A stretch of DNA of 62,994 nucleotides, filler included, from Dimargaris cristalligena (lineage: Eukaryota): NCBI GenBank assembly GCA_003614675.1. It is 24 parts of 24 records of this genome, joined end to end, with 100 filler letters (N's around TTAATTAATTAA, not from the genome) between each part and the next. Parts side by side here need not be neighbours in the genome. Positions count along the whole stretch, not along the records: positions 18,618 to 21,161 come from ML004180.1; 23 more parts are not named here. One strand, given 5' to 3'. Under the pieces are notes generated by a model. The model saw nothing but the letters and a program-made list of their open reading frames with translations. It searched no databases and was not told the origin of the DNA. Of the stretch, positions 5,346 to 61,369 are shown piece after piece. The position numbers and the translations under genes are program-made. The number at the start of each line of letters is the position of its first letter. Positions within the stretch are counted from its first letter, which is position 1.

Positions 5346-5433
5346 AGAAAAAAAGCCACTTCATACCCTGCATAATAATAATAATAGTAATATAATTAGT
5401 GTGGCTTATAGGGGGACAGTACACCTTGCCACA
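5346..5433 (-). mobile_element. Family-B LTR end inserted into a Gypsy integrase
   Basis: Begins TGTGGCAAGGT on the minus strand. Matches 24531-24614. Interrupts the pol frame after PFDLEEW. Confidence 0.7.
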
Positions 5434-7860
5434 CCACTCCTCTAGATCGAACGGCAGGGTACAGTCTTGCCCATAGACTAAACGGTAAGGGCTGAATCCC
5501 GTCGTGGCTTTCACAGTAGTCCTGTCCGCCCAGAGCGCTGTATGCAGAAACGTAGGCCATTTCTCGGGTTGGTCGCGACACAACTTCTTCAGGCAACCGA
5601 CAAGGTCTCGATGGCCATGCTCAATCATGCCATTTGTCTGCGGATGGTAAGTGGTCATGAACTTCAGGGTAAACCCATCCTGTCGAGTGGCCCTTGCCAC
5701 TATCTTTCCCCATAATTCTCCACGATCGGCCAGAGTTTCTCCAGGGATACCGAACCGCGAGATGACATCGTCATACAGAAATTGGTACATGGTGGCGCTA
5801 CACTTATCGATGAGGGCACGCGCTTCCACCCAGCCCGTCAAGTCATCCCGGGCTACTGCGAGATATCGGTGTCCTTCTGTTGCCTCTTCGAGTTCCGTGA
5901 GATCGATTCCTATCCGGCTGAAGAGAGTGGATCCAATTGTCACCTTGAGGGGTACTTGAACGGTCCCGTAGGGGTTGTGCTGACACAAGTCACAAGTGCG
6001 GATGACTTGCTCCACGTCTCTATAGAGCTTAGGCCAGAAAAATCGACTGGCACACATGCGATACGTAGCTTTTACACCTCGGTGACCGCTAGGGTGTCCC
6101 CCGTGTATGCTGGTCACCACTCGGATTCGTTCATCGGGATTACTGATGACTCGTCGTGGCAATCCGAGTCTCTCGCGTTTGAACAACACTCCATGGCTCA
6201 TTAGATACTGTGAACTCTGGCGTCGGATTCCGGCTCGCTGCTGTGGTTGAGTGTCTTCTGGGAAAGTTCCTTCCTGGAGGAACCGAATGATTGCCTCAAA
6301 ATCCCCGCCGTCACGTTGACGGGCTTGTTTCACTTCGCTGACTCCGAGGTAGTCGCCAGGATCTGTTAACACCTCGATTTTCACGGTATTCACACCCGTG
6401 CTTCCGAAACCGTCTTCTCCTCTGTCACCAATGAGGTCCTCCTGCGGTACCCGAATCATCTCAGGCACAGCAAAGTGCTCTAGCACGAGCTGAGCGACAC
6501 GGTCTCCTTGGTGAAGGTCTTGAACTCTGTTGGACTCGTTCGATAAAATGATGCAGATTTCGCCTATGTATCCTGGGTCAACGACTCCCCCCCCCACTCG
6601 AAATCCTCGAAGTGCCAGACTACTGCGGTCGGCGACTCGGATATATGTTCCCTGGGGCAGAGTGCAGTGCAACCCTGTTGGGATGCGCTTCACCTCGCGT
6701 GGCTCAAAACGCGCATCTATGCGAGTGGTCACATCAAATCCCGCATCGGTTGGGTGTTTTAGACTAGGTAGGGGCATACCATCTCGTAAGTATACCTTCA
6801 GCTGGCCGACTTGAGGTGGTTCTCCCAGCCCCTTTGTTGGCAGTCGACTGAGCGCGTCAGCCACTGGATTGTCGACCCCCTTGATGTGGCGGATCTCGAA
6901 ATCAAATATCTTCAAGTATCCTATCCATCGGCTAGCTACATCTCCAGGTAAGTCGGGACAGTTGATTAACCCAATGAGAGGTTGCGCATCTATCTCCAAG
7001 ATGAAGAAAGTGCCGTATAAGTAGCGCTGCAACTTCTTCACCATCATGTAAGTGGCAAACAGCTCACGCTTGATCTGGGCGTATCGACGCTCCCGCTCCG
7101 AGAACAGGTAGCTCTCGTACCATACCACGTATTGATTTCCTTCGTCATCCGCTTGTCCTAGCACTGCTCCCGCACCGGTAGGACTGGCATCGGTAGTGAG
7201 CACAAGAGGAGGAGCGTCCTTCCCGTACCTAGGGTTCTTAATGAGCGGTGCCTGTGTGAGAGCCTTCTTCAAGGTCGTAAACGCTTCTTTGTGTTCTGGG
7301 CCCCAATGGTACTGGATCCACTGTCGGGTCAGGGCATAGAGGGGTCCCGCTATTATCGAGAAATGAGGTATCCAGATTCGCAAGAACTCACACGTGGCGA
7401 TAAAGGATCACACTTCCTTCGCGTTCGTCGGCCGGGTCCATGCAAGCACCGCAGCTATCTTGGAGTCCGTCGGACATCTTCCCTCAGTGGTACACATGTA
7501 CCCGAGTACCTCGACTTTTGTCATACCAAAGGCCGACTTCATGCCACTGATGACTAGCCCGCTCTTCTGCAAGTCGGTAAGCACTTCGACTACGTCGTTT
7601 GCATGACAGATTACCTTTCGCCGAATTCCGGTGACCTCTTCTTCTCCGACTTGCTTCAGCAATCGGGTCTTCACCACTCCATTGTCCACGAATAGGGACA
7701 AGCGATCCGGCATGTGCCAATGGAGTACAGAGGTTAACACTCGTTGAAATGTACTTACGCTGTTAGCCCAGCCCATGGGTAACCGAGTCATCTGGACCAG
7801 ACCTATGGGTGTGTTGATAGCGAAGATATCTCGGTGTAAAGAACTGAAATCAAATCCTTG
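5434..7860 (-). mobile_element. pol: Ty3/Gypsy pol (RT - RNase H - dUTPase - integrase), pseudogenised
   Basis: RT motifs RLPMGWANS and FVDNG (expected xxDD). In-frame TGA at 7408-7410. RNase H LTTDASPTGAGAVL...NPVADALSR. Integrase H-x-GHRG...CDLC, GIDL, ADRGE, HPQTNGMIE. Confidence 0.92.
6390..6800 (-). CDS. dut: Trimeric dUTPase domain in frame within Gypsy pol
   Basis: All five dUTPase motifs in order: AGFDV, RSSLA, GVVDPGYIGE, GDRVAQL, RGEDGFGSTG. Boundaries approximate. Confidence 0.93.
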
Positions 7861-8014
7861 TTTCACATTGAATTTATTGGTTACCCGAGTATTACCTATC
7901 CTTTGACATAAACCNNNNNNNNNNNNNNNNNNNNNNNNNNNNNNNNNNNNNNNNNNNNTTAATTAATTAANNNNNNNNNNNNNNNNNNNNNNNNNNNNNN
8001 NNNNNNNNNNNNNN

Positions 8015-19658: not shown

Positions 19659-20240
19659 TGTCACCTGAGTTAACCACTCTTAGTCTGTCAAGAGTCCTGG
19701 GGATAGGCTTCTAACAGTAGGTGGGGCTTAGGCTCAGCCAAGCAGCTACTAGTATTAGGTATGGGGCACAGTACTAACCAATAAAGGCTTAGGCAATCAG
19801 GTATGCAAGGGACATGCAGCAGGCACACTTACTGGTCAGTATGAAGGGGTGAGTGTATATAGAGTTTATTTGGGTAAACTGGGGGGTAAGAATAAGCCAA
19901 GGAATTAAACTGGTCCTAATGGGGCTCAGTTATATATATACAGGGACACTCCAGAGGGAGGTCCTAAGGGAAGGATACTACTAAGGCTGTAGAATAGATA
20001 ATTAGGTAGACTGGATAGCCACAGGTATCTGGAAGACTCTGATGGTAACTAGAAGAGTCTAACAGATTAGCACTTGAGTGATTAGTGTAAAGGGGTGGAG
20101 TCCAGAAGGGGAAGGGTTATATGATATAGGATGATCATATAGTACCAAGGGTGACTATGGGAAGGTTAATTTGGCACTATAAGGCCCAATAGGGACATAT
20201 ACTTAGGCATCTGGATTAAAGAGGATTAGATGGTCTGATA
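19659..20240 (-). mobile_element. Family-A solo LTR (~580 bp)
   Basis: TGTCACC...TCTGATA termini. Multicopy in the window and essentially CpG-free. Confidence 0.85.
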
Positions 20241-20737: not shown

Positions 20738-20810
20738 AGCCCAATGCGGGGGTCGAACCCGCAACCTTGAGATTAAGAGTCTCACGCTCTACCGATTGAG
20801 CTAACCAGGC
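20738..20810 (-). tRNA. trnK: tRNA-Lys (CTT)
   Basis: GCCTGGTTAGCTCAATCGGTAGAGCGTGAGACTCTTAATCTCAAGGTTGCGGGTTCGACCCCCGCATTGGGCT folds as a cloverleaf with anticodon CTT and a GTTCGA T-loop. No encoded CCA; downstream T-run as for Pol III. Confidence 0.95.
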
Positions 20811-21261: not shown

Positions 21262-21558
21262 TTTCTTTCTGTGTATCATTTTTCTTTTATCTTTTTTTTA
21301 TACAATAAAATTACCTTTACTACCACTTGGGTTACTTGGATTCTTTATGCCTCTGAAGTTGTGGTTGCCAAGGAAATGGTCCTTTTGAGCTTCCAAACAG
21401 GTATTTCTATTACTTTGGTTTAAACTAGTTTTATTTTATCATAAAAATATTATATTTTTAAATATTTTCATTTGAGTAACAAACCAGTTCGCCTGGAGAA
21501 GCCACCCTGCCCTTTTGATATATTTTGTTGTTCATTTTAGTGGCTTGATACCACCACA
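21262..21558 (+). mobile_element. Family-B LTR part inserted into a Copia protease
   Basis: Ends GATACCACCACA. Reverse complement of about 23919-24220. Confidence 0.7.
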
Positions 21559-22943
21559 CTGTGACACCACCACAGGCTTATCATTTGCCAGGGTTATAGT
21601 ACGGGATTCAGGGCTATATGTGTCAAATATGTCACGGTGGGGGCAATAATGTTTTGATGCCCCAGAGTTAATGATTCATGCCGCTCGGTTTGCATGCCCG
21701 TCAGTTACTTTGAAGGCAAACTCATCCTTTTCTTGGACCAATTTAATGGTTGGCTCATGAAGATCCTGTTTATCATCAGATTTCTTGCCTTTATGGAGTT
21801 TGTTTGAGTAATACCCATCAGTACTGTGGGTGTTTACCTTGTGAATATCACAGTAAACTAGTGTCCCCTTTTCCTTTTTGAGTTTTGTTGCCTTCTTCTT
21901 TCCCTAACCGGTGAATTGCCCATGCTATTGTCTGCTGCCTCAATCAGTGACCTTCATGGCTGATTCCAAAGCTACTGGTGTACTCTCATTATGGTTGAGA
22001 TGGTCCTCAGCTTGGATGAAGGTCTGAACTGCAGAGTCAAAGTTGTAGGTCTCAAGCTCGCGACAGTGCCATTGTGAGACATACGATTGGTAGGCAGGGT
22101 CCAGTGATTGTAAGAGGAGGAGTGTTTGGTGTTGGTCTGCTGATAGGTTTTATTCAGCAATACCATCATCCAAGGTCTTGATAGTGGTTGCAAGATCTCA
22201 GATACTCATGTTGCCTTGACAAAGTCTGGCTATCTCCCTGTACATGTGGATCACTTTCATAGTTGGCATTTTGGCATATTGCTTTGCCAGTCTATCCCAG
22301 ATCTCTTTTGCACTTGTCTTAGTTGGGAATGAGTCGTTAATACCTTTTGGTAGTGAGGTACAGATAACAAAAGTAGCTTCACGGTCCTTGTGATACTTTT
22401 CATCGACCATGGGGTCATCACCCTTTTTCTTGCGACTCGGGAGGGATTCAGTTGTGACTTCCCAAAGATCTTCCATTTCGAGGAAGATCTCCATGTATGA
22501 GGCCCAGCTCTTGTAGTTGGTCTCTTCAAACACAGGGATAGTACAATCATACTGAGTGTTTCTCATCTTGTCTTGATAGGTGTTGGATGGATGGATGGAT
22601 GAATAAGTGTGTACAGACTTTTGCACTTTGGTGTACTTCTGTGAAGTAAATAAGGTTTTATATTGTGCTTTATTATTAAAGAACAGCAGGGCTCATAACC
22701 TGTTGGAATAATTGTAAGAATAAAAACTGCAATCTTTATTATATGGGTAAATAATCACTAGTAAAAGATTGTAATGAATATAGAAGAAAGCCGCAAAGGT
22801 AAAACCAACAACTCCAGTTGAGTTGTTTTATTGAATAGTGGACACACCCATAAGAATGGAGGGGATGTGGCTATTGTATAGTGAATCAAATAGTGCTCAA
22901 AAGAGCAGAATGAGAATCACAGTTAATCATGTGATCTCTAACA
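21559..22943 (-). mobile_element. Ty1/Copia 5' portion (LTR, PBS, gag, protease), decayed
   Basis: 243-bp LTR 22701-22943 (TGTTAG...CCAACA). PBS GGTTATGAGCCC at 22689-22700, the copia-type half-tRNA-iMet primer site. Gag NYKSW...EDLWEV. Protease relic *IINSGASKH (from WxxDSGA). Confidence 0.88.
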
Positions 22944-23435
22944 CCCAATACTATAGGATCATCCTATATTATATAACCCTTTGCCTTCTGGACTCTACCT
23001 CTTCCCACTAATTACTTGAGTACTGATCCAAAGACTCTTCTGGTTACCATCAGAGTCTTCCAGACCCTAATGGCTATCCAGTTGGCCTATTTACCTATAC
23101 CTTAGTCTTAGAAGTATTATTTCCTTAGGACCTCCCTCTAGAGTTATCCCTGCATATATATAACTGGGCCCCATTAGGACTAGTTAGATTCCTTAATTTA
23201 CTCTTACCCCTTAGTTTACCCCAATAACTACTATATAAACTCACTCCCCCTATACTGACTAGTAAGTATACCCACTGTATGTCCCTCACATATTATTGTG
23301 CTTAGCCTTTATTAGTTAGTACTATACTTTATTCCTAAAGCTAGTAGCCTGTTTGGCTGAGCCTAAGCCCCATCTACTATTAGAAGCCTATCCTTGAGAC
23401 TCTTAATAGACTAAGAGTAGTCAACCTAGGTGACA
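22944..23435 (+). mobile_element. Family-A LTR (partial; target of the Copia insertion)
   Basis: Reverse complement of 19659-20150; ends GGTGACA. Confidence 0.8.
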
Positions 23436-23918
23436 CATTGGTCCCCAAACATGAAATATGCACTGTTCCCCATTATAAACTGAACCACTTGTAAACAAGC
23501 TACTAGTCTACTTATTGTAGGTTCCCCTTTACCAACTAGTCCTCTGAGCTGGTTTAATTAATTGCATATTAAATAATTTAAAGGGTTTCCCACACTTAGT
23601 ATCACTAGGATAAATAATAGCAATAGCTGGCTGGTGGTTCATTCTGCAAAATTGTTCAAAATGACCTCCATTTCACCCTTTCTCTATTATTATCTTACTT
23701 ACCCTCGTAGCTCACATATCTTGGTTATTGGTGTATAAAGCCAACTCCGCTGCATAAATCGAGTGAATGGATGCGCCTCGAGGCGGTTGTGGTCGTGATG
23801 GAGNNNNNNNNNNNNNNNNNNNNNNNNNNNNNNNNNNNNNNNNNNNNTTAATTAATTAANNNNNNNNNNNNNNNNNNNNNNNNNNNNNNNNNNNNNNNNN
23901 NNNAGCAGCCATGGTCAC

Positions 23919-29309: not shown

Positions 29310-30050
29310 GGTACAGTACTAACTAATAAAGGTTACAGTAGGTATATGTAAGGGATATGCAGCAGGTATACTTACTAGACAATATAAGGGGGAGTGAGTA
29401 TATATAGAGTTTATTGGGGGAAAACTAAGGGTAAGAAAGGCTGAGGAATCTAACTAGTCCCAATGGGGTCTAGTTATATATATACAGGGACAACTCCAGA
29501 GGGAGGTCCCAAGGTAAGGATACTGTTGGAAATATAAATATGATGATAAATACAATTACCTTCAATTGCAACTATAAAGATTTAAAGAAGAGAGAAAGAA
29601 CCGCAAGGGGCAAGGCTAGATGCCCACAGTTGGTTTTATTGAATTGGATAATAGCACTAATAATGATTAGGATGAAGTCCCAGGTATAGAATGATATAGT
29701 AATGGCTAGAATATAGTCCCGAGTATAGGATAAGCCAATCACAGGGATGGAATCAGTGGGATGGGGGAAATGAATTTCCAACAGATACTACTAAGATTAA
29801 GTGGATAGGTAAATAGGCTAGTTAGATGGATGCTAGTATCCAGAAGACTCTAATGGTAACTGGAAGAGTTTAATACATTAGTACTAGAGTGATTAGTAAG
29901 AAGAGGAGGTGTCTGGTTGGGGGGAGGTTATATAATATAGGATGATCCCATAATACCAGGGGTGACCATAGGAAGGTTAATATGGTGCTATAAGGCCAAA
30001 TAGGGTTATACCTAAGCCAGTTGGATTAAGGTGGATTAGATGGTCTAATA
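29310..30050 (-). mobile_element. Family-A LTR (partial) carrying a nested solo LTR
   Basis: Colinear with 19765-20240 apart from the 29524-29783 insertion. Confidence 0.8.
29524..29783. mobile_element. 260-bp solo LTR (Copia-like) with 5-bp TSD
   Basis: Perfect 10-bp terminal inverted repeat TGTTGGAAAT...ATTTCCAACA. GATAC duplicated at 29519-29523 and 29784-29788. Confidence 0.9.
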
Positions 30051-31804
30051 TCACCCTCACTGTTGAGAAATAGGGGCCATGCCTCTGTCCTTGAACTAGT
30101 ACTAATCTAACTATACTAGAAGAGGCTGATACTGTGTGCACTGCTTGGTATAGCAGTTGATTGACTAGGCCATGCAATGCTACCCCCATCTATCAGAAGC
30201 AAAAATACATTTGACCTTGCTGCAATACCAAGGAAACACCATTGTTCACTTACCCACCAGACCAATGTACTTGTCACACTATTGGCTCAAGGTGAACAGC
30301 TTGATAAGGTACAGCAGGGAACACACATTCCCAAGACCACTGTTGTCCGACTTACTGTGGTACGGATTGCCCTTTGCATCTCTACCTATACACCAATTGC
30401 CAGCAAGTGACACCCTTTTTAAGGAAATCACCTCCTGCCCACTAGGTTAGGTCACCGACGATCTAATCTCCGGTCAATCAAGCAGATCACCGTATAGATC
30501 CCGGTAATATATAATTCCGCACTAGTGCTAACCCGTTGATTCTCATGCATCTTGGTTTTCCTCGTGGGTTCGCATTCTCGTCTTGAAAAGTATATCCTCC
30601 GCTATTAGTTAGTAGATGATAAACCTCGATGCCCACAGAAGGAGAATGTGGCTGGCCTTTTTGTTAAACTGGTTGATTGGAACTAATACTCATGAATTTT
30701 GACTAGAAACGGCAGTTCATTCGTGGACACTCCAGTAAATCCTGCCATTTCTGAGCCGCCTGGTCGTCCCTATATTGGCATATAGTGGTGGGGCGGGGGC
30801 CATTTGCCGACGAATGTCATCCTAACGATATTGCGTATGCCTCCACACGGCTAAGAAAAAGATGAATATACACTGCGAAGCGCCTTGTCATTTGCGAATA
30901 GTGCTTATAAACTACTTTACTATCATGGGAAAGACTGATGCTTCATGCTATGGTGACTCGGTTTAATAAATTATTTGGAAGGGGGGTACAGCAGCAGCAA
31001 GACACCAGCATACTCATGGACGCAGGTGGCACTCTGACGAGGGAAGTGCTATTTTCTGGGTTCCATTAGGGACAAACGATGGTCAAGAGAATACAGAGTG
31101 TATGCCTGTAGTAAGGCCCTGCTATATTGTACGCACGATTGGGAAAGCGGCAGCACTTGCCGAAGCAATGTCTTGTCGTATAGATTGGATTACCATGACG
31201 GGGTCGGTGATGTTTTATGCTTTACAGTAGCAAATAGTGGATAGCCATTCCTAAATGAGCAACGGTATTGACTAGCCCTGTTCATCTATAATGGATTTCA
31301 GCAGATTAACTTCCGGGGGATTAGAGAATACAGGTGAAGGTGTAGCCTTGTAGGGCAATCCCCGCCCCCCTCACCTCCCCTGTATTCTGGCAGCTTGGTC
31401 TCCGTGGAGGCGTTGGTCCCGACGGCTGTTTGATTTGTCGGGAGAATATCGCCTGGCCTTGCTCATCCATACACCGCAGGCGGGTGTAGATTAGGGAGGG
31501 ATAGGGTGATCCTAATTGAAAGCCGGATCTGCCCCGCAGAAGCCACAGGCAACACTCCGGTATTTACTCCTTAAAAATGGTATATAAAGGCCAGACAGTG
31601 TCACTTAATGAACTTATACTTCACACTTTCTCTTCACTTTATTTCTCGATTGTCGTGCAATTTGTACGACTTTCGATTTCCAATAGGTTGCATTTGGATT
31701 GGTTNNNNNNNNNNNNNNNNNNNNNNNNNNNNNNNNNNNNNNNNNNNNTTAATTAATTAANNNNNNNNNNNNNNNNNNNNNNNNNNNNNNNNNNNNNNNN
31801 NNNN

Positions 31805-33165
31805 GGGCTATCAATGATGTTCGGCCTGGTTAGGGCCGGGGGGTATACTATGGCGCTATACGGCCTGATATGACGGCAGTCATATCGGTTGGATTAGGAC
31901 GGATTAGGAGGGGCGACATCACCCTCTCCTACTGGAGCCTCGTCCTCGAGGCCTTCGACGAATGGAATGATCTGGTCGCCAGAGACGCGCTCCTGCGGGC
32001 GGCGCTTGTCGTGTATTGCGGGGGCGATGGTGTATGTATTACCACCATGGATGCCTTCGATGGTGGCGGGGCCTTTGAAGGGGGCTTGTAGTGACAGGGG
32101 CCCATGGGGAACTCGGATGAGAATGCGGTCGCCAACGCGGTACTGGGTCGGGTCGGTCGACTTAGGTCCTGTTTTATGCCGGACGTGTTGGTAGGCATCG
32201 TGGAGTCGGTTACGCAGTTCGTCTACATAGGTGGACCCGGTGGAGGCCCGTAGAGCATCTGGTTCGGGGTTCAGGGCGACGTCAACTGGCATGCGTGGGT
32301 CGCGTCCGTACATCAGGTAGAAAGGTTTATTCGCGATGACCCGGACGTGTGCGGTTCGGTAGGCAAACAGATGTAACATAAGGTGTTCGTCCCATTGAGG
32401 GTCATCACCAGAGGAGTGTTTTGCAATCATGTGCTTCAAGGTCCCGTTCAGGCGTTCGATGGCTCCGTTGCTTTGCGGGTGGTAGGGCACGGCTAGGCAG
32501 TGGTCTACTCCGAGGAGTCGCAGCGTCTGCCATAGGATACTGGCGGTGAACTGTTTCCCGCGATCGGAGACCAGAATGCGGGGGCAGCCATGAGCGCTGA
32601 TGATATCCTCGATCAGGAATTGAATGACGGCCTGTGCCGTTATGGTGGGAACCGCTCGTGCAAAAGGCCATCGGGTAAAGTAATCGACCGCGATAATGAT
32701 AAACTTGTTGCTGTTTCGAGTGGTCGAGAAGGGGCCGATGATGTCGATTCCCAAACGGTCGAGCGGTCCAGTGAGGGGGGTGACCAGTTGCGCCGGCAGC
32801 GGGGGGTTTTGTTGGTGACGTTGGCACACCTCGTATCCCCGGATGTGCTCCTGTATGTCGTTGTTCATTGACGGCCAATAGACCGTCTGGCGGAGGTGAT
32901 GGAGCACTGTTTCTACTCCTAGGTGCCCTGCACCAGGCCCTTCGTGGGCGGCCTCTATTGCAGCGGCCCGGTGAGTTTTCGGCAGCACCAAGTGGTTCTG
33001 TCCACCGGGGCCTTGCTGATACAGCAGTTGATCGTGGATCACAAAGGTTTGATTCTTGCCGCGAAATCGTCGGAATGCGCGGTCTCCCATTCGGTCCCGG
33101 AGTAGGGTCACTTCGGGGTCTGAGAGTTGGTCCCTGAGCATCTGGGCCGGTGGTATGGTCACGGC
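31805..33165 (-). mobile_element. Ty3/Gypsy integrase with PPT and start of the 3' LTR (young, CpG-rich)
   Basis: ORF 31894-33162 with H...GHLG zinc motif, GIDIIGP, SDRGKQF, HPQSNGAIERLN and KGPA. Polypurine tract AGGAGAGGGTGA directly before TGTCGCCCC at 31918. Confidence 0.92.
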
Positions 33166-35744
33166 GAGGACTCTCGGTGGGGCATTGGAATTGGAATTGC
33201 CATGTGGATTTACGAAAAAGACAATCCAATGGGCAAGGTGAAAGAATCATTCCAGAGACCCGGCTTTATATATGCAGCCATGATGTCTTTATCGCCACTA
33301 TTGATAATTAGAGTACAGATTGGATTGGTAGTAGTTTCTAATGTTGTATTGTCTTAAATTTACGGCCAGTTACCCTGTCTCATCCATATAGTCATTTCAT
33401 AAACCACCCCATATATATATATAGGCCAACTGCCGCTAGTTTATATCAACATACAAATTTATAGATATTTTAAAAATATATGGCAAATATGGAATGACAC
33501 TGACAACCACCACCCAAGAATTGTCTATTGGGTGGTGGAGACCGTTGTTTGGCCTCGGTCTGCCTCTGTTAGTTTAGCAGAGGGGTCGTGTGACAAAATC
33601 CCTCCCTAATATATGGGAAGGACTATTGTTCAAGCCTATCCCCGAGACTCTCAACAGACTAAGAGTGGTTAATTCGGGTGACATAACTGGATAACCATTT
33701 GGGAAATTTGGATTTTATTACATTATAAGTGTTGAAATTATCTGTCTAACATTAATAAGTAGTGGGTGTAATACTAACTGGTGCAGAGGGCCCCTACAAG
33801 CAAAAGGGGCTGTTGAAAATAGTATAGGCAATGTAGTGGGGAGGTATGGGAGAAAAAAGTAGGAATGTGTAGGTTGTGCTGCCGTGGGCAGCCGGCCAGA
33901 GGCCGTGTAAGCTCCAGCACATATTGCTAATCCAAAAAGTAGTCATACTTTGGATAAATTCAAGGCCACCAGACAATTGACGAGTTATTTCCATGGGAAC
34001 GGTCCGGGGTCATTAATATTATTTTATTTCTTTATGCTAGCTGATTCTCTTTTCCTTCAGCTTTCCAAATTATACTTCCATTTACTTTTCCATCTATTAT
34101 TGATGAAGTTATAGGTCGTCAAAGTCAATGATGATTTTAAAGCCATGACAATTGACCACCTCATATTACCACTTTTATGCTATGACAATCCTTTATGAGT
34201 AGGGCTTGGGAATAACCAGTCTCCGGTGGAATCCTTCTTGGAGTCACACCATACAATTGCTTAAACATGAATTCCTTTTTTATCAATATCCGACATGAAG
34301 AAGGACTGGGAAGACTGTGTCTTCCAACCTTANNNNNNNNNNNNNNNNNNNNNNNNNNNNNNNNNNNNNNNNNNNNTTAATTAATTAANNNNNNNNNNNN
34401 NNNNNNNNNNNNNNNNNNNNNNNNNNNNNNNNAAGTCGAGGTTGCGGTTCGGCATACGGCTGGTCGGAATACCGATAGCACCGCACCCCTCGGCGTCTCC
34501 CCCGGCCCCAGAACCAAGCCGGTCCTAAGGACAACTGCACCACTAAAGGGCCCCCCCGGCCTACCCAAGCCACCCGCCGCCCGCATTTTCGAGGTGGTCG
34601 AAAGCCCCGAAGTTGCTATATAATCTCAGCACCTCGTAGTTTAAGGTGGATAATACACTTATAGAGAAACCAATCTATGGGAACTCCACCTAATACCACT
34701 TACAACGGATAAGTAAACCAGAATTATCCACTTCTGTTAAATCCCCCTCCCCCTCCCGACCACACTCGCTTCATTCATTGACACTATTTTAGCGAGTGGT
34801 TGTTCTTTGACTAGGACACCGCAGCTAACCAATGGCGAGTCCATTGACATTGAAATATATTTATAAAGTATGCATTACTTATTAGTTAGATAGCACTATC
34901 ATCATTATCAATAAATTTACATGCAATTATTACGCGCAAGGCGGATTCGGCCTTCACTTTCACTTATATTAAAGATATACTCGATTTTCAGGAAATTGTA
35001 GTGGGAACATTTCGGAGTAACCCGACTTTTAGATTGAGGAAGGGGGTCCACGGTACTCGAATTTCTCCGATACAAATAATTTCGCAGGAAAATAAAAGTA
35101 GGACAGTGTAATTATTCGCCTGGCAAACTAGTTTCAAAGAATTTTCCTAATAAGAAACTGCCATTTATAAGTAATATTAAAAGATACTCGGCTTCAACTT
35201 GGTGTGCGCATTGCTACTCTTCAACCGCCCTAAACTGGTTTAAAATGACACCAGCCCGAAGATTCGAACGAATTATTAAATAAGCAGATATGTATGACCG
35301 CGCGGCAAGAAATGCCCAGCATCTTATTACTAATAAAATAATTAGCGCCACATGGCTATAATATATAAAATGGAGTTTATTGGGATATTATCGTACTATA
35401 ACGGATTGGATAGAATAGCTACCCAACCATTTGATATAATGTGAGGAAGGTCACATTTAGGACAGGAGGAGGAGGCTGACACGGCGGTCTGAGATTATTT
35501 AGCGGGTGGTGTTATAGAGAGTGTGAGGGGTGCGGGCAGGAGATGCTGGCGGGATGGGTAGGGTCGGGTGGGGTGGGCTCCATCTAGAGGATTTGGAGGA
35601 ATCCTTAAGATAATAATAATCGAGTGCGCTAAGCGGGGTCAAGGAAGAACCGAGCAACGATATAGCTTACACCAAGGGTCACTGTCGAATCCTTCTTTGG
35701 TGGGCTAACAATCAAGCGCGATCCGAGATTTGGGATGTGGAAAA

Positions 35745-37170: not shown

Positions 37171-39162
37171 GTATTCATGCTCATTATTAACCTCAATTGG
37201 GGGTGGAGGATCTTGAGTGTGACCAGTAATAGTATTTTCAGTAAGGGGTTCAAGGAGGGAGACATAAAATACATGGTGTATACTCATTGATAGTAGTAGG
37301 TCTAGGTGATAAGCCCATTGGCCAACTTTGGCAATGATAGTAAAAGGGCCTAGGCAGTTGTAGTTAAGCTTTGAGTTAAGTCAGGTGGTCTTGATGTGTT
37401 TTCAAAGGAGCCAGACTTTAGAGCCAATAGACAGGTTAGGCTCAGGCAGTTGTTTATGCTTGTAAAAGGCAGCATACTGGTGGTTTGTAGATTCAATATT
37501 CTTAACTAAAGAATTGTGAACCTCAATTAGTTCTGAAGATAGGTCAGTTACTGCAGGTGTATTACATTTTGTAACTGCAGCAGACATTGGTAATGTAATT
37601 AGGTGATGGGTAGTATTGGCAAAGAATGGGCTAGTTTTGGTAGTTGAGTGTTTTGAGTTATTGTAAGAAAATTCAGCAAGGGGAAGGAGGTCAACCCAAT
37701 TATCCTGGAGGTGGTCACAATAGAAGCAAAGGTATTATTCTAGGACCTAGTTTACCCACTCTGTTTGGCCATCTGATTGGGGGTGGAAGGCAGTTGATAT
37801 GTTTTACTTGATATGGAGGAGTTCCATCAGGGCAGACCAGAAATGAGAGGTAAAGGTTGAGCCTCAATCTGAAACAATATTAATAGGGAGGCCATGGTGT
37901 TTATAGATATGGGTTAGGAATAATTGGGCTGTAGTATGGGCATTAACATTGTCAGTAGTTGAAATAAAGTGTGCCATTTTAGTAAAGTGGTCAACAACTA
38001 CTAGTAGTGCAGTAGAGCCACTGGAGGCTGGGAGGCCAACAATATAATCCATAGAGATTGATTTCCAAGGGCCTTCAGGGATTGGAAGGGACTGGAGTAG
38101 TCAATAAGGTTTGTGACAAACTAGTTTACAGTGATTACATTAGTCACAAGAGGATACATATTCTTCCACAAATTGGTGCATCTTGGGCCAGTAGTAATTC
38201 TGGGATAGTAGTTCAAGGGTTTTAGCTTGGCCAAAATGGCCAGCAGTTGGGGAATCATGGTGATCTTGGAGTAAGCGTAATTTGATACTGGTAGTGTTAG
38301 GGATATAGATAAGTCCATCATAAAGAATAATATCATCAACCAGGGAGAAAGGTGGTAGGTTATTGGTATTTTCGGTTGGGGAATTGGGTAATGGGTTATA
38401 TAAAGAAGCTAGCACTTTAGCCAGGGCAGGATCAGATGTATAACTAGTACATATATCATCAATAAGAAAGGAAGGGGAAGTTAAGGTATTGAGGGTACAA
38501 ATAATAAATTAGTCAGACTTTAGTAGTGCTTGTGAACTATTACACAAGGTGTTACTCCCCTCCTTAGGGACAAAGTCAGGGTGGTGAGATAGGGCATCAG
38601 CCTTGCCATTCTTATGGCCAGGGATATACTTAATAACAAAGTCACAGTTAGCCAAAAGTTGGGCCCAGTGGACTTAGTAGTGATTTAGGGATTCTGTAGT
38701 GGTAAAATACTCTAGGTTCTTATGGTCAGTGAGTATTGTGATTTGGAAATGAGCACCCTCAAGGTAGGCACACCATACCTTGAAAGACTCCACTATTGCT
38801 AACATTTCCTTATTATAAATTTCATAGTTCAGTTCAGTAGGAGTGAATTTACGAGAATGGAAGGTAATAGGGTGGAGAAGACCATCATCATCTAGTTGAG
38901 AGAGGACTCCACCAATGGCAAAGTCAGAGTCATCAGTTTCAATAGTTATAGGCTTAGATAGATCAAAGTATTGAAGGACCAGGGCTGATGTAAATGCAGA
39001 TTTAAGGGCATCAAAGGTAGCTTGGGCTTCAGGTGACCAATCCCATGGAGTATCCTTATAAAGGAGGCAAGTGAGTGGTACTATAATTAATAAGAAATTT
39101 CGAACAAATTGGTGGTAGAAGTTGGTAAGACCTAGGAAGGACTGGATATGGGAGAAGTTCAA
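37171..39162 (-). mobile_element. Chromovirus-type Ty3/Gypsy pol pseudogene (RT end, RNase H, integrase, chromodomain start)
   Basis: [75 protein letters not shown]...PPPPIEV. Many stops and frameshifts; nearly CpG-free. Confidence 0.92.
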
Positions 39163-39699
39163 TCAAGCTATATAATGATTTGAATGAAAGTTCCAATTGA
39201 TGCAGCGGGACTATTTTTTTATCGAAACGGGAAATAGGCACATCAATGGGACTTTTTTTAAAAATGAGGGAAAAATGATCCCTGACCCTGTGATCAATCA
39301 TAAGACCTATAATAAATCTATGAATAATGACTCAGGAAAGCCAAAAAAAAAAGTGTACTATGTAAATTGATGTCTAGCAACTGGATTAGTGAAAAATTAG
39401 CTTTCTTTAACTACTTTTTACTATTTTTCAATACTTTAGAGCTACTTTCCACTACTTATTAAAGGACTATTCCTATACTGAATTAATTTACAATAAACTT
39501 AAACTTTCTTTTATATATAATCTTGCAGCTAGTGTATAGAAACTGTGTTTTTTTAATCAAACTACCCTTCNNNNNNNNNNNNNNNNNNNNNNNNNNNNNN
39601 NNNNNNNNNNNNNNTTAATTAATTAANNNNNNNNNNNNNNNNNNNNNNNNNNNNNNNNNNNNNNNNNNNNCCTATCGATAAAGCATTTACTTATTTTGA

Positions 39700-40071
39700 T
39701 CATTTCGATTCCTGAAAAAAAGGATTGTTCCTTGAAATTTTGTTATTATTTTTTACCAAAGAGAAATTCAACTTGCAAGGCACCGTTGTAAAATCTTCGT
39801 GAATATTTGACAAACCGTAAAACTCAAGAGGGTCATTCAAGTGGCAATCGTTAAAATGCCTCCGAGGATATTGCAAAATCATACCAATGTTTTCCAATTC
39901 TTGACGTGTTTTCCGCGTTGTCTTGAGAAGATGGACGATCTCTTTATGACAATTTTCAATATATGACTTATTTGCTATACTTGCGTCGTATACATTTTCA
40001 TACATTTCAGAAATCTCAGCGGCTGACAATAACGCAATGTTTTTGTCTTTCAAGATACTCAAAATCATCAT
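39700..40071 (-). CDS. Hypothetical protein on a putative viral contig
   Basis: 123-aa intronless ORF in a gene-dense AT-rich contig. Confidence 0.55.
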   Translation of the reverse strand: MMILSILKDKNIALLSAAEISEMYENVYDASIANKSYIENCHKEIVHLLKTTRKTRQELENIGMILQYPRRHFNDCHLNDPLEFYGLSNIHEDFTTVPCKLNFSLVKNNNKISRNNPFFQESK

Positions 40072-40224
40072 TTACAGATATCAATATATGACGATTTTTA
40101 TTATTTAGCTCGTTTTTCATTATCGTACATCTTTTGCAAATTTTATGACATTGGAATCAACTATGAAAAATATCTATCGATAAATAAAATAATCAGATGC
40201 GGTGATTAGGAATTTGAAAAGTGT

Positions 40225-40938: not shown

Positions 40939-41241
40939 TTCTGCGCGAGAAAACTGTATGCCACTTTCGAAAAGTTCGTTCGCATGTTCTATGTGTTTTT
41001 TTAATGTACAATTCCATTCTTGACTGTCTTCTTATTTAAGTTGAGAACATTAATGTTTCTTTTTTTTTCACCACGTTTTGCTTATATTTTTACTTTCCAT
41101 TGTGTTTGTACTTTTCTTTTATCGATGATACAATCCGAAATTTGAATGTTGGCCGAAAACATGATGCATCATATCAAGTACCAATGTCCGCAACTCACGC
41201 GTTTTTTTTATTATTTGGTATAATTAAACCACAAGACAAAA

Positions 41242-41559: not shown

Positions 41560-41592
41560 ACGAATTTTATATTTATCTTTAGACACTAAAAA

Positions 41593-42387: not shown

Positions 42388-42972
42388 TATTGCCCAGGTT
42401 AACTACTCTTAGTCCATCAAGAGTCCTAAGGATAGGCTTCTAATGGTAGATGGGGTGTAGGCTTGGCCAAGCAGGTTCTAGCATTAGGTAGGGGTACAGT
42501 ACTAACTAATAAAGGCTACAAATACAGGTACAGGCAAAGGATATGCAGTGAGCACACTTACTAGTCAATACAAGGGTGGTGGGTACTTATGGAGTTTATT
42601 AAGGTAAACTAGGGGGGTAAGAATAAGCTGACTCATCTAACCAGTCCCAATGGGGCCCAGTTATATATATGTGGGGGCCACTCCAGAGGGAGGCCCCAGG
42701 GGAAGGATACTACTAAGACTAAGATATGGTAAAATAGGCCAATTAGATAGCTGTTAGGGTCTAGAAGACTCTGATGGTAACCAAAAGAGTTATTGAATTG
42801 GCCCTCAAGTAATTAGTATGAAGCAGTGGAGTCTGGAAGGGGAATGGTTATATGTTATAGGGGTGATCCCATAGTACCAGGTGTGGTCATGGGAGGGTTA
42901 ATATGGTTCTATAAGGCCTAATAAGGATAGACACTAACATATTGGGATTAAGGTAGATTAGATGGACCAATA
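42388..42972 (-). mobile_element. Family-A solo LTR
   Basis: Colinear with 19659-20240. Termini mutated to TATT...AATA. Confidence 0.85.
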
Positions 42973-44119
42973 CTGGCATCTAAATTTACTAAACAGCTTA
43001 TATGTCTTTCCCCATATATCTCTATTTTATTTTATGCCCTTATTTGACTAGTTAACCAAATAACTGATTGGCAGCAAAGTTAATTCCTGTGATATTCAAA
43101 ATCTTTTACCCATTCAGTTGGTAAGCTCCACATTAGTAGATAGCTGACTTCACTTGCAAAAAGAAGTTCCTGAGTATATAAGTAAAATCCAATAGGACTA
43201 TTAATACTATGTTGCAAGAGGTAAAGTCTACAGTACAGAGAAATAGTGCAATAATTAGAGCTATATGATTACCTCCCTGGAACCCTACCACACTAGTGTC
43301 AAAGCTATTGAGGCAGAATGGGGGTATATCTAACTTAACCAGGACCTGGGTGAAAAAGAGCAGATGGACCTCTTCCTACTAGCCCAGATGTTAGCCATTC
43401 AACCTGCTGATGCTATTTACCAAGTCATGGAAAATCTAGCCCAGAGTACCATGGAACTACAACCCATTTATACTGCACTAGGCTTGTACATATATGATCC
43501 CATCTGTATACTGGCCAGTGAACTGATATCCCTGAATGGGTTGGATTTGCCCAAAGTCTTTCATAATGTTGTTGTGCAGGAATCCTTGTGGGGGATCATT
43601 GTGATTCTGACCTTCAAGGGGAACTTCCTCAAACTGAAGGATCTGGCTAGAAAAATCCATAGTGGTGCACTGCCCTTTCTCTATGAGGTAGTGACATTGA
43701 TTGCCTATCTGATGCTAGAGTATGGACTAACTCAATATCATGACTGGGCTCTCAAAAACATACTCTATCCTATCAATGATCAGACAATGGCCTTTTATTC
43801 AGTTTTGAGAAAGTAAGTAACTTACTTAATATGGCAGAAGTTTATCCAGTCTGTATAACAAGAAATCCATTTGATGAGGCAAATATTACTGGTTAAAAGT
43901 TATTCTCCCATATATTACCCCATATACATATTGTGTAAAATATTATACAGTTGGGTTAAAGTTCACCCATATCCTAATTAGAGGCTACTTAAATAATCCC
44001 CAAAATGCAGACGACCCATTCCATCTCAATAGTGAAGCCTGTTGCCCCTGTCAGGATAGTCCCATACCTTGGGTTATCCAAAACATAGACATATATAATG
44101 AATAAAACATATTTGGGTA

Positions 44120-44679
44120 CTATCAGCCCTCCTAATCCAACTTGATCCAGACCTAACAATCACCCATCCTATTCTCACCTTATAGCACCATATTGACCCT
44201 CCCATAGTTACCTCTGGTACTATGGGGTCATCCTTTATTATGTAACCCCACTCATTCAACCCCAATGCTTTGCACTCCAAACACTCAGCTTGCTGATCCA
44301 AGACTCTTCCAATTCCCATGAGAGTCTTCCTAATGTGAAGCCATCTGGTTGGATTCTCTACTTATCTACACCTTAGTCATAGTAGTATTTCCCTTGGGAC
44401 CTCCCTCTAGAGCTATCCCTGCATATATATAACCAGGCCCCACTGGGACTAGTTCAATTCTTTAGCTTATTCATATCCCCCAGTTTACCTCAATAAACTC
44501 TATACACTCATTTCCCCTTATGCTAACTAGTAAGTGTGCCTTCTGCATGTCCCTGACATTTACCTGTATTTGTAGCCTTTATTGGTTAGTACTATGCCCC
44601 CATCCTAATGCTAGTAGCCTGCTTAGCTAAGCCTAAGCCCCACCTACTGTTAGAAGCCTATCCTTAGGACTCTTGACAG
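44120..44679 (+). mobile_element. Family-A LTR, near complete
   Basis: Reverse complement of 45960-46519. Confidence 0.8.
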
Positions 44680-45937: not shown

Positions 45938-46519
45938 TATCACCTGGGTTAACCACTCTTAGTCCATTAAGAGTCCTAAGGATAGGCTTCTAATGGTAAG
46001 TGGGGCTTAGACTCAGCCAAGTGGGCTATTAGCATTAGGATGGGGGCATAATACTAACCAATAAAGGATAAGTGCAGGTAAATGCAAGGGATATGCAGCA
46101 GATACACATACTAGTCAATATGAGGGAGTGAGGGTATATAGCTTATTGAGGTAAACTGGGGGATATAAAGTAGACTAACTCATTAAATTGGTCCCAGTGG
46201 GGCCCAGTTATATATACATGGGGAGAGCTCCAGAGGGAGGTCCTAAGGGAAATGCTACTAAGTCTAAGGTATAGGTAGATAAAGGATCTGACCAGATGGC
46301 TTTGTATCTGGAAGACTCTCATGGGAACTGGAAGAGTCTTGGATTAACAGGTTAAGTATTTTGTGCAAAGCATTGGGGCCAGAAGGAGAAGGGTTATATA
46401 ATGAATGATGATCCCACAGTACCAGGGGTGACTATGGGAGGGTTACTATGGTGCTATAAGGCCTAATAAGGGTGGATGATTGTTAAGTCCAGATTTAGGT
46501 CGGACTAGGAGGGCTGACA
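45938..46519 (-). mobile_element. Family-A solo LTR
   Basis: TATCACC...GCTGACA; colinear with the other copies. Confidence 0.85.
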
Positions 46520-46525
46520 GATATA

Positions 46526-47504: not shown

Positions 47505-48959
47505 TGGTACTTCTGATTCTCGCAATTCCGATTTACTGTTTACATTATTCCCTAATGCCGACCAATTGCACCAAGTGGCTCGCCAGGCGGGCGTTACGCC
47601 GTACACTCTCATCAGGGCTGCCTGGTCCCTCCTACTAAGCCGATACACCGACCAGACCGACGTGGTGTTCGGTAACACCGTTTCTGGGCGGGCCCTGCCT
47701 CTCCCTGGTATCGATTCTCTTCTGGGCTGTTTCATCAACACCGTGCCTTTCCGAGTCTCTTTGAAACCTGGAATGTCGGTAATTGAACTTGTCACGGTGA
47801 TACACCAAAGCGCCCAGATGATGGTCCCCTTCGAACACCTGCATCTAGCCAATGTCAATGAGTGGGTTGATGGTGAGGTTCGCCCAAGTGATATGTTCAA
47901 CACATTGTTGGTGTACGAAAACTACCCTGACACCGGCTTGGAGAGTCTAGAACATCCGGTTACGTTCACGGACAGAACCTTTTTGGAATCGACCGACTAC
48001 CCCTTGGCCGTCATTGCCCAAGTTGAAAATGCCCAACTAACGGTGAATTTGAACTGGAGTACGCCCGCATTTGACCGGTGCTATATGGTGACTCTTTCGC
48101 ACCACCTAACCACCCTCTTTTCTGACATGGTCTCCGCCTTGGCTAATTCAAATGGGTATATATCTATCAAAGACCTCTCGTTACTCTCCACGAGTGAAAC
48201 GACCCTGGTCACTGAGCAGCTTGCCCGCCCCCATTTAGCCATTGATTTTGAGATATGTGTTCCAGACCTATTCACCCGAACGGCCCATTCAATCCCTGAC
48301 ACAATTGCGGTCGAGTTTAACGACTTACAGTGGACTTATAGAGACTTGCACATCCGGTCCGTAAACTTGGCCCACCATTTACTGCTATATGGGATCAGGT
48401 GGGAAACACCCATTGGCCTAATTATTGACCGGGTTCCCAGCACCATTGCCGCCTATATGGGGGTTGGTTTGGCCGGCGCTTCTATTGTACCGATTGACCC
48501 CGCTTTCCCCTGTGACCGCATCCACTATATGGTGGAAGACTGTGGTATTCGGCTAATTTTAACCAATACAGCTGACCAGGCCCAATTGGACACCATTCAA
48601 CAAGCCCTCCCTGACGTCGAATTCCAGACCATTGACTCCTGGCTCTCACTCCCTGATGTTCCTTGTAACAGGTTGCCCGCTCTTCCTAATGTTCGCACCA
48701 CCGACCTGTCACATATCCTTTACACGTCAGGCACCACTGGTCGGCCCAAGGGTGTTCAGTTGGAGCACCGGGTCATGGCCAATTTTGTCCAACAAGTAGA
48801 ATCAACGATTGGCATTACCTCTGGGCTGCGCCTGATGCAAAATATGGCCCTGACGTTTGACTGCGCACTTTTGGAGATCTTCATCGGTTTATGCAAAGGG
48901 GCTACGCTAGTTTTGCGTACCGACCTCCTGGATACCCTGCCCCGGGTGGATGCCTTGGT
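47505..48959 (+). CDS. NRPS fragment: second half of a condensation domain and first half of an adenylation domain
   Basis: DVVFGNTVSGR, GCFINTVPFR, FNTLLVYENYP, A1 WTYRDL, A2 GASIVPIDP, A3 YTSGTTGRPKG, A4 FD. Intronless. Confidence 0.93.
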
Positions 48960-55707: not shown

Positions 55708-57137
55708 CACAGTACTAACCAATAAAGGCTTATGTATACTGCCATGGGTAGGTACAGTCTTCTACTTCCATGGGAATTACTAATTGTTTTCTTTTGCCAC
55801 ATGATGCCAATACACACTGAATAAACAGCAGCTACTTCAAACACTTATCTGGAAACTACTTATCCAGTCAATCCTATTTTCAACCCTGCCTATTTCCAGT
55901 CCTGCTGACTGAACTGTTACTTCCATATTATCAGTGTTTGTTATTACAGATGAGTTAGAAGGAACTCCTCTCATGTGGAAGTAAAGTTGGTAGTGTTGAA
56001 GCTTATCCTTATCCTTTTCCTTATTCAGTTACCATGAATGCCTTGGTGAATCCAAGGTATTTCCACTTTCCATTTTATTTAGCTATTTTTAGTAAAAAGT
56101 TCAAACTTAAAGACCCAGCTAGTTTTCCCTTTGTGGTTTTATGGTTAGTCATCTATCTGAGGATGATATCTGAGATTCATAGCTTAAGTTTAATTTATAG
56201 TCCTATTTTATATATATATATAGTCCCCCTGTTGGCCCTTAAAATGGCAAGTTATCTTCAAGATAAGCCTTATTATTCAGAATAAATATCTGTTCTTAAC
56301 TTCACCCAGTGACTTATCCATTATCAGCTGAAGACTTCAACTGGAAGTCCATTTTACATTTTTCTTATTCATTTTATTTACTTCATTTTCTCTATAAGCC
56401 TGTTTGTTAGTACACAGCCACCATGGCACCCCTAGTTCCTAACTCCAATAATGGGAGTTTAGGATTAATTCATTTGGAACATTTCCCACTGTACCTCAGT
56501 TCATGCTCAGACAGTAGTTCTGACCCAGTCTGACTAGCTGAGGGACTATTACCTGAATTCTCAATGTTCCATGTAGGCACCAGCCCCTTGAACCTGACAT
56601 CTGGTGAGCCTACCAGCCTGGCAGAAGGCAGGGGATCCAACCCCAGCCTCAGTCCTGGAAGGGAGGTACCTCAAACCACTGGCACAATATTAAGTGATCA
56701 GTTATGTAAGGGATATGCAGTAGGCACACTTACTTATTAGTATAAAGGGGTGAGTACATATAGAGTTTATTGGGGTAACTGGGAGGTAAGAATAAGCTAA
56801 GGCTCAAACCAGTCTTAATGGGGGCCCAGTTATCTATATGTGGGGACAACTCCAGAGGGAGGTCCCAAGGGGAATGCTACTAAGACTAAGGTATACTAAA
56901 TAAGCTAACTGGATGGTCATGAGGGTCTGGAAGACTTGGGTGGTAACTGGAAGAGTCATCAGATTAGCACCAGAGTGAGTGGCGTGAACCTAAGAGTCTG
57001 GAAGGGGGATAGTTATATTGAATAGGGTGATCCCATAGTACTGGGGGTGACCATGGGAGGTTACATATGGTGCTATATGGCCTAGTCAGGATGGACGATC
57101 ACTACACCTAGATTAAGTCAGATTAGAAGAGCCAACA
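55708..57137 (-). mobile_element. Family-A LTR with nested family-E element (55735-56689)
   Basis: TSD-like TTATG/TTAAG flanks. Homologous to 3245-4671. Confidence 0.75.
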
Positions 57138-57751
57138 CACTGATCCCAGTACTATTAACAGTGTTCACTTCAGCCTGGTCCATCCCAACTACTTGCTGTA
57201 CAGTTAATTAATCAGTTTTATATTTTATCACTACCCAACTATTCATGCCCAGCCCCTATCCCCCAAGTTCCATCATTTCTTACCATGAAGTTGCTATCCT
57301 TTAGCATCCTGGGCATAGCCATACCAGCCATATTTTCTGCCAGTCTCAGAGTCACATTGCTTAACTTAAACCCCTCAGCTGCTTGTCCCCACATTAACTG
57401 TGACATCAGCAGCCCCTGGATTCAGGAAAACTGAGCAATCATATAGGCATCTAACACCAACTGTAAGGTCATCAAGGCCACCCTGGACAAGTTTGTGCAT
57501 GAGAAAATTGCTCAGGCTGATCAAAGTACCCATTCTGGTATGGAATGTGCCAATTACCAAACTAAGTTAATAAATTACCTCTGAGCTAAACTGCTGCCCC
57601 AGGACCATCAGGACAAAGTTGCTGAGTCCGACCAGCCCAAGCTCCCACATCTCCACTGATGCATGCCTGCACACAACTGTGGTGAATATTCCAATTACTG
57701 TGTTAGTGATAATTGCTGTGACCAATGTTGTTTCTGTCCAATTAAATGGAG

Positions 57752-57820
57752 TGTCGCCCGAGTTAACCACTCTTAGTCCGTCAAGAGTCTCGGGGGTAGG
57801 CTTCTAACAGTAGGCGGGGC
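57752..57820 (-). mobile_element. Family-A LTR terminus, CpG-intact copy
   Basis: TGTCGCCCGAGTTAACCACTCTTAGTCCGTCAAGAGTCTCGGGG. Confidence 0.8.
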
Positions 57821-60508: not shown

Positions 60509-60577
60509 TATGGCGCTATACGGCCTGATATGACGGCGGTCATATCGGTTGGATTAGGATGGATTAGGAGGGGCGAC
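60509..60577 (-). mobile_element. Young LTR start, near-identical to 31849-31918
   Basis: TATGGCGCTATACGGCCTGATATGACGG...GGAGGGGCGACA. Confidence 0.85.
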
Positions 60578-61369
60578 AAAGGCCAACTGATCCTATATTG
60601 AACTACTGTCGTTGGTCAATGAAGGCACGGTCTTTTTAAAAAAGGGGAGCATTGTCTTAATATTGAAATAGTTTAGAAAAACCCAATGCACCCTAGTTAC
60701 TGTGTTGAGCACTTCACTTATTGGCCTCAATCTTGCGGTGCCTCGTTTTTTTAGACTGCCTTTTCTTTTCCAAGGATTTACAGTAGATAACGTAAATGAG
60801 GGCCTCGCTTGAAAACCATTCCCCAACTTCAGCCTACATGAGAATAGTAAATTATTCTACAGTGTGGTATAGTTTATCCACCCAGCCTCTTGCACTTTTA
60901 TCCCCCCCTTCAACTATATAATCCACCTATTGAAGTAGGAGCAGGCAAGCCTTGGCAACGGTTAATTAATTAGGTGAAGCTCCCTAAGTTATTTTACAAG
61001 AGTAGCCGAGTTTTCGAAAGGCGTGTTTTATTGATGACAGGGTAAACAAAAAAGGTCTTATTGGGACCATCCCAAAAAAGATTAGGGTAGTAATGCAAAC
61101 ATGTGCAAATGAACAGTGTGATTCAGCGAATGCGCAACGGGTTGCAAAATGCCCGATTTTACAGACTGATGGGACATGTAGATGGTTGAATTTGAATATG
61201 AACTAAACAAATTGGTGCTAACTGAAGGTATGGAATATATTGTGCTAGTCAAAATGGCGGAATTTAACTTTGCCGAGTCATCTCGAAACAGAAAATACAG
61301 TGTTTGGGAGGAAACGGGGTGGGCGGATAAATAATAATAAAACACAAGTGTGGGGGTGCTGGGCCTTCA

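Follow-up and report, generated by a model that had tools for sequence, protein, structure and literature searches.

Repeats in this Dimargaris genome lose CpG, and later CpA, to C-to-T change, while its genes keep their CpG. The process works like methylation-linked transposon decay with an added RIP-like CpA component, and it is not to be filed as RIP, because CpA is not its main target and the mutations are neither clustered nor biased to one strand. The features of 5mC-linked decay are there: CpG loss is symmetric and falls in repeats, genes retain CpG, a DNMT1-class gene is present and the loss is gradual. Those of a Dim2-type mitotic mutator are not: profile searches returned no DIM-2-class enzyme, and CG is not spared.

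The window and its host

The window is the whole stretch of DNA that was analysed, 62,994 nt with filler included. It comprises 24 contigs of about 2.5 kb each, with N spacers between them, from an assembly of 30.65 Mb in 2,220 contigs, and besides fungal genes and transposons it holds a contig with a giant-virus capsid gene and a secretion operon of bacterial appearance. The five best hits of the host DNMT1 are from Tieghemiomyces, Dimargaris and Dispira, at 60-65% identity, and the top hit of an NRPS piece in the window is from Dimargaris, at 76%. These marker hits point to a Dimargaritales fungus, outside Dikarya, as the host, placed to order or genus level. This agrees with the first-pass annotation, which had supposed an early-diverging fungus.

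A Ty3/gypsy LTR family with young and old copies

The repeat at the centre of the analysis is an LTR of ~580 bp with the hallmarks of Ty3/gypsy elements: TG...CA termini, a 5-nt target duplication, an adjacent polypurine tract and integrase. There are 1,002 candidates genome-wide, of which 40 were scored, at about 82% identity; 17 LTR pieces in a 600-kb sample, which includes two contigs chosen for known copies, scale to ~870 in the genome. The copies in the window and their neighbours are as follows.

19659..20240, minus strand (element sense): old Ty3/gypsy LTR copy, 582 nt; 0 CpG; ~82% identical to the 40 scored copies
22949..23436, plus strand: old LTR copy (matched part), inverted relative to 19659; 80% identical; 0 CpG; 16/26 CpA sites changed
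29310..30056, minus strand: old LTR copy interrupted by an insertion of ~260 nt; matched blocks 29310-29524 and 29784-30056
42388..42972, minus strand: old LTR copy, by alignment to the LTR family
44115..44679, plus strand: old LTR copy, truncated at one end and inverted relative to 19659, by alignment to the LTR family
45938..46520, minus strand: old LTR copy of a different subfamily, by alignment and clustering
56697..57138, minus strand: old LTR copy, partial, by alignment
57752..57820, minus strand: young CpG-rich LTR end, cut by the contig end; 5 CpG in 69 nt; 100% identical to 13 other full-length matches, mostly near contig ends
31805..31919, minus strand: young LTR copy, other end, adjoining intact integrase; 7 CpG per 100 nt; 92-98% identical to 39 other places
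31897..33246, minus strand: Ty3 integrase frame of the young element, intact, CpG kept; Pfam Integrase_H2C2 and rve; CpG o/e 1.01
60509..60578, minus strand: fragment of a young LTR end, at the start of a contig; 97% identical to 31849-31918
20738..20810, minus strand: tRNA-Lys, just past the CpG-free zone; the first CpG beyond the 19659 LTR is at 20668

The young copy at 31805-31919 has a polypurine tract and an integrase next to it, and from these the orientation of the 19659 copy was deduced. Young CpG-rich copies persist mostly as contig-end fragments that are 92-100% alike. A transversion-free 5-nt target duplication flanks 10 of the 37 old copies with recognisable ends, and the 19659 copy has no clean one; its lack in the other ~27 may mean that LTRs at different sites have frequently recombined.

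The first-pass annotation had arranged four LTR termini in a series. All eight terminus motifs were found (57752, 19659, 42388 and 45938; 57776, 19683, 42412 and 45962), and the linear order proved wrong: the 57752 end is from a young subfamily that shares only ~75% identity with the old copies and differs from them by 8-10% transversions, and the old copies decayed independently. The young LTR was likewise rejected as sole ancestor, being a separate subfamily.

Substitution spectrum in old copies

Forty-six distinct old copies, each with at least 480 aligned nt, were clustered on transversions, giving a subfamily of 21 that includes the 19659 copy and groups of 5 and 4; the other 16 entered the pooled run only. 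Changes were polarised by column frequencies among the old copies. At 26 inferred former CpG sites, the 21 copies read TG 201 times, CA 193, TA 133 and CG 3 (of 530), with 13 other. Outside former CpG, C-to-T change in these copies amounts to 201/752 at CpA (27%, if anything an underestimate, because majority polarisation limits any site to 50%, and from observations that shared ancestry makes non-independent), compared with 128/2260 at CpC and 123/1864 at CpT (6-7%); T-to-C change stands at 3-7% and transversions at 1-2%. Pooling all 46 copies gives 28% at CpA and 7% and 8% at CpC and CpT. The site-level median is 0.29 at 36 CpA sites versus 0.05 at 197 CpC/CpT sites (p=1e-16), a 4.3-fold excess at site level (bootstrap 3.4-5.5). 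The rank order is CpG >> CpA > CpT ~ CpC. These aligned copies bear out the earlier claim of C-to-T change at both CpG and CpA: CpG loss is near-total, and transitions are not confined to it. The CpA changes have no preference for 5' context (0.23-0.35), which speaks against APOBEC-type editing.

The first-pass annotation also drew on TpA richness. Old copies are indeed TpA-rich (TpA/ApT 1.53), but young LTR fragments already stand at 1.39, so this is weak evidence. TpA/ApT and composite RIP indices, which hardly tell old LTRs from young ones, were dropped as evidence; TpA-based indices mislead here.

Order, strand use and timing of decay

CpG goes first, and CpA follows at roughly 1/8 to 1/18 of the CpG rate. 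In young fragments, where inherited changes were counted more than once, CpG-to-TpG change stands at 100/1405 (7.1%), CpA at 15/966, CpC at 22/2200 and CpT at 10/1373, on mixed strands; the CpA excess in these young copies is not significant (15/966 vs 32/3573, p=0.10). CpG loss rises gradually with age, from 7% in young copies through 26% and 88% in pol copies to 96-99% in old LTR subfamilies, and one Ty3 pol copy retains 29/39 CpG. The order follows from the 4- and 5-copy groups, which have lost 96% of CpG and only 9% and 16% of CpA, at similar transversions in the 4-copy group. Expressed as hazard per C, the values are 1.6-2.6 or more for CpG and 0.09-0.32 for CpA.

Is this RIP proper? Strand choice at former CpG is binomial (p=0.76 in 21 copies, p=0.71 in 46), and TG or CA at neighbouring former CpG are the same 190 times and different 183 times, without runs, so strand-processive bursts are not seen. 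With CpG leading CpA ~8- to 18-fold, no strand bias or runs, and neither RID nor DIM-2 found in the profile searches, the label of RIP proper is not supported. TA at former CpG (133/530, 25%) is about as frequent as CpA-to-TpA change at original CpA (27%), and the two are correlated over the 21 copies (rho 0.80); one CpA process therefore suffices for the double hits.

The CpA load ranges from 11 to 54% across the 21 copies, is overdispersed (p=2e-7) and does not track transversions, T-to-C change or CpC/CpT changes. Dividing the hazard values, CpG loss per cytosine is ~95-170 times the rate of rare transversions. This ratio exceeds that of vertebrates, and so high a value could mean an enzyme-driven step. 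Two old LTRs split by insertions of ~300 nt (L172:8023-8893 and L182:7108-8008) have kept 13/30 and 7/32 CpG and carry CpA hits at 3/24 and 3/30 sites; their partial escape fits either a homology-length threshold or shielding by neighbouring active chromatin.

Restriction to repeats

The excess of C:G-to-T:A change is confined to repeated DNA. Six repeat-filled contigs have a CpG o/e of 0.01-0.09 and gene contigs 0.6-1.25; by class, the values are 0.90 for ORF windows, 0.79 for CpG-bearing non-ORF windows and 0.02 for old LTRs. The split is sharp, with 22/1200 windows below 0.05 and most at 0.6-1.2. In the same 600-kb sample, 19/24 CpG-free stretches of at least 300 nt match a repeat, compared with 17/150 control windows. 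The change is thus targeted to repeats, as the first-pass annotation had proposed. Its contrast between CpG-free repeats and CpG-rich genes stands for the six contigs and fails for intact Ty3 pol, at 0.92 and 1.01. Three further features serve as a second family and as controls.

37400..39150, minus strand: decayed Ty3 pol, second family; RT_RNaseH; 4/39 CpG columns left; CpA excess; three copies at 91-100%
5347..7407, minus strand: intact Ty3 pol with dUTPase, young-repeat control; CpG kept, o/e 0.92 (5346-7914)
47505..48950, plus strand: NRPS gene piece, gene-duplicate control and host marker; 80-85% paralogues; Dimargaris 76%

Private changes among the three pol copies of the second Ty3 family fall at 45/221 CpA, 24/235 CpT and 12/232 CpC sites (p=9e-6), with CpT somewhat raised. 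Genes are affected mildly at CpG and not at CpA. Five NRPS paralogue pieces (80-85% identity), which are genes under selection, retain 4-5 CpG per 100 nt; at their third codon positions, C/T differences by following base are 0.30 (G), 0.22 (A), 0.21 (T) and 0.18 (C), and there is no CpA excess (40/186 vs 60/315, p=0.56). In the intact pol at 5347-7407, the dUTPase sits between RNase H and integrase.

Flanks

CpG is depleted beyond old copies as well. Among flanks in which the sample analysed here showed no repeat (38/74 old, 30/58 young), the median distance to the first CpG is 266 nt beside old copies (38 flanks) and 48 nt beside young copies (30 flanks; p=2e-7). CpG per 100 nt climbs from 0.05 beside old LTRs to ~3.7 at 800-1,000 nt, and is 2.0 beside young LTRs. 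Of three flanks checked genome-wide, two hold other repeats, which weakens the case for a halo that reaches into single-copy DNA; the third is single-copy and CpG-free for 368 nt. In ten clean target duplications, 7/9 mismatches are CpA/TpG-to-TpA (contexts read by hand). The decay likely spreads past the element.

A second sample

The region G000:C51:10001-20000 was compared with run X4, which comes from a different sample and study; eight contigs among the matches listed cover 7,992 nt. They differ from the assembly at 10 positions, with per-contig counts in agreement, and 7 of the 10 fall within 1,529 CpG-free nt, a ~10-fold excess (p=0.0007). One 621-nt CpG-free stretch carries six of these, two CpG and four CpA transitions, which are small numbers; the seventh is at CpC. 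This stretch has a 78% paralogue, and the X4 contig was taken as orthologous because it is 99% identical and at single-copy depth. A 208-nt piece inside an old LTR was reproduced by an independent run with no difference. Since the second sample differs ~10 times more often in CpG-free DNA, this comparison argues for a C-to-T process that is recent and not an artefact.

Methylation and heterochromatin machinery

Genome searches with the profiles PF00145 and TIGR00675 returned two genes only: a DNMT1 with RFD, BAH and methylase domains (G000:C729) and a short methylase (C715), which by its motifs we take to be DNMT2-like. The DNMT1 gene runs off its contig, and its C-terminal part is missing from the assembly. 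The best DNMT1 structure matches the Dimargaris DNMT1 orthologue at 330 bits, and the 9baq entry, presumably DIM-2, matches it at 94 bits. Of the genes that the first-pass annotation proposed to look for, DNMT1 is thus present, and neither RID nor DIM-2 came out of the PF00145 and TIGR00675 searches of an incomplete assembly, which can miss genes. There are also three Pre-SET genes. One of them (C1239) combines chromo, Pre-SET and SET domains, the chromodomain-like stretch being read by eye, and is a putative Clr4-type H3K9 methyltransferase.

Relation to known systems

How does this decay compare with that of other fungi? Transposon decay by CpG-to-TpG change with DNMT1/Masc2-class enzymes is described in Microbotryum and rusts (PMC4352252), where C-to-T change is likewise restricted to repeats, CpG is dominant, a Masc2/DNMT1-class gene is present and RID was not found in that survey; it is at CpG only there, whereas here there is a clear second class at CpA, with no 5' T preference. 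Within the 10 genomes surveyed, the CpA signature appears only with RID/Masc1, and Masc2-only species show CpG only (PMC4352252). The transposable elements of Tuber melanosporum share our pattern of predominant CpG and secondary CpA (PMC4352252, Table 2), but this ascomycete carries both RID/Masc1 and Dim2 (PMC4352252), which the profile searches did not find here. Zymoseptoria tritici offers CpA-directed C-to-T change in repeats by a DNMT1-superfamily enzyme, Dim2-dependent and mitotic; it spares CG and has both Dim2 and rid, whereas in our case CG is lost fastest and the enzyme found is of DNMT1 type (PMC8016269). Neurospora RIP, in its RID and DIM-2 branches, also favours CpA among non-CpG contexts and affects flanks; in contrast, CpG is the main target here, profile searches found no RID and the decay looks gradual (bioRxiv 344036).

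Closer to the host, repeat-restricted 5mC is reported for Linderina pennispora (same subphylum) and Phycomyces (PMC11258239). These are also early-diverging fungi with methylated repeats, Phycomyces at CG plus some CHH, but what is reported there are methylomes (PMC11258239), whereas the evidence here is a mutation spectrum. RIP indices are reported with caveats in Entomophthorales (PMC11105155). A Dimargaris genome stands in the species table of a 1,239-genome screen, and its label is absent from supplementary file 14 of that paper (PMC12543289). Our search, with most subscription papers outside it, found no literature on repeat decay, RIP or DNA methylation in Dimargaris.

Mechanism

What drives the decay? 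In the reading that we consider best, and moderately probable, heterochromatin guides methylation by DNMT1, strong at CpG and weaker at CpA, and deamination follows. Transposons would be marked as heterochromatin by the Clr4-type H3K9 methyltransferase; a single DNMT1/Masc2-class enzyme would methylate their cytosines, chiefly at CpG and less so at CpA; and methylated C would turn to T site by site on either strand, perhaps by passive deamination. CpG would go first, to TG or CA, and these products together with original CpA would then go to TA at ~1/8 to 1/18 of that rate, while the mark would extend somewhat past the element and differ among loci. What has been observed is the spectrum, its order, the random use of strands, the restriction to repeats, the recent activity and the genes themselves; the existence of 5mC, its writing at CpA by DNMT1, passive deamination and the stage of the life cycle are inferred. 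The CpA part of the decay is not yet explained by the DNMT1-methylation reading, against which stand the overdispersed CpA load, decoupled from the neutral clock, the non-significant CpA excess in young copies, the high ratio of CpG loss to transversions and the 10-genome survey, in which Masc2-only species have CpG change alone (PMC4352252). The earlier argument that 5mC deamination does not readily give CA-to-TA change is not supported: CpA methylation would give it, and Dim2-dependent mitotic CA-to-TA change is described in Zymoseptoria (PMC8016269).

The overdispersed and clock-independent CpA load instead favours two layers, in which CpG methylation decay would be joined by an active CpA-to-TpA mutator working in repeats during vegetative growth ("mitotic RIP", like that of Zymoseptoria Dim2), by DNMT1 or an unseen partner. 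To this we give a minor though real chance. It draws further on the very high CpG-to-transversion ratio, on the 4/6 second-sample differences of CpA type in one CpG-free stretch and on Zymoseptoria, where >98% of C-to-T changes in Dim2-positive material fall at CA (PMC8016269). Zymoseptoria spares CG, however, which here is lost first, and the profile searches returned no DIM-2-class gene. Locus-variable CpA methylation would by itself yield overdispersion, and CpG retention and low CpA load coincide in partly escaped copies, as one targeting system predicts. True RIP, in which a RID-like or heterochromatin-linked enzyme, triggered by pairing before meiosis, would turn C to T in duplicated DNA atop CpG decay, is improbable. 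It would account for the repeat restriction (19/24 vs 17/150), for the partial escape of two LTRs in short halves, as a length threshold predicts, and for a preference for CpA whatever the 5' base, known also from Neurospora, where the DIM-2 branch mutates single-copy linkers (bioRxiv 344036); RIP indices are also reported in Zoophthora (PMC11105155). But two profile searches found no RID, and dozens of young copies persist at 97-100% identity with scattered CpG changes. Strand bias and runs are missing, which many weak rounds would hide, and NRPS paralogues lack a CpA excess (p=0.56), where selection would purge mutated genes. The 1,239-genome screen reports RIP-like signatures in ascomycetes only (PMC12543289). 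A genome-wide mutation bias, old age, or an amplification or assembly artefact is very improbable and largely refuted: fold-back chimeras occur in the assembly (2674-4500, 57922-59633) and non-coding DNA is mildly CpG-poor (o/e 0.79), yet windows split sharply (22/1200 below 0.05), independent runs reproduce the CpG-free stretch, including the 208-nt LTR piece, and genes show no CpA excess.

The CpA signature in fungal repeats has been tied to RID and to ascomycetes (PMC4352252; PMC12543289). That a Dimargaritales genome in which only DNMT1 was found has a clear CpA class loosens this link: either DNMT1 of fungi can itself deposit mutagenic methylation at CpA, or RIP-like mutators are not limited to Dikarya. 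It is conceivable, though we think it doubtful, that this Zoopagomycota fungus has an active RID-independent repeat mutator, a lone DNMT1 (or a partner) that would cause far more C-to-T change at CpG and CpA than passive deamination does and would still be at work between isolates. In that case RIP-like mutagenesis would be older than RID and Dikarya.

Other features of the window

A Copia-type gag remnant at 21262-22600 has an intermediate CpG o/e of 0.28 and represents another partly decayed family. A piece of a giant-virus major capsid gene (Pfam Capsid_NCLDV) lies at 1-888 on the contig 1-2573, with a CpG o/e of 1.05 and no repeat-type decay, and a second AT-rich contig, 39671-42182, also keeps its CpG (o/e 1.03) without such decay. 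The contig at 26543-29074, of 61% GC, carries what reads by eye as a type IV secretion/conjugation operon (VirB11-, B2-, B3- and B4-like) and is probably bacterial contamination. Near-perfect fold-back repeats run from contig ends at 2674-4500, 47505-49014, 52720-54865 and 57922-59633, and are typical of amplification chimeras.
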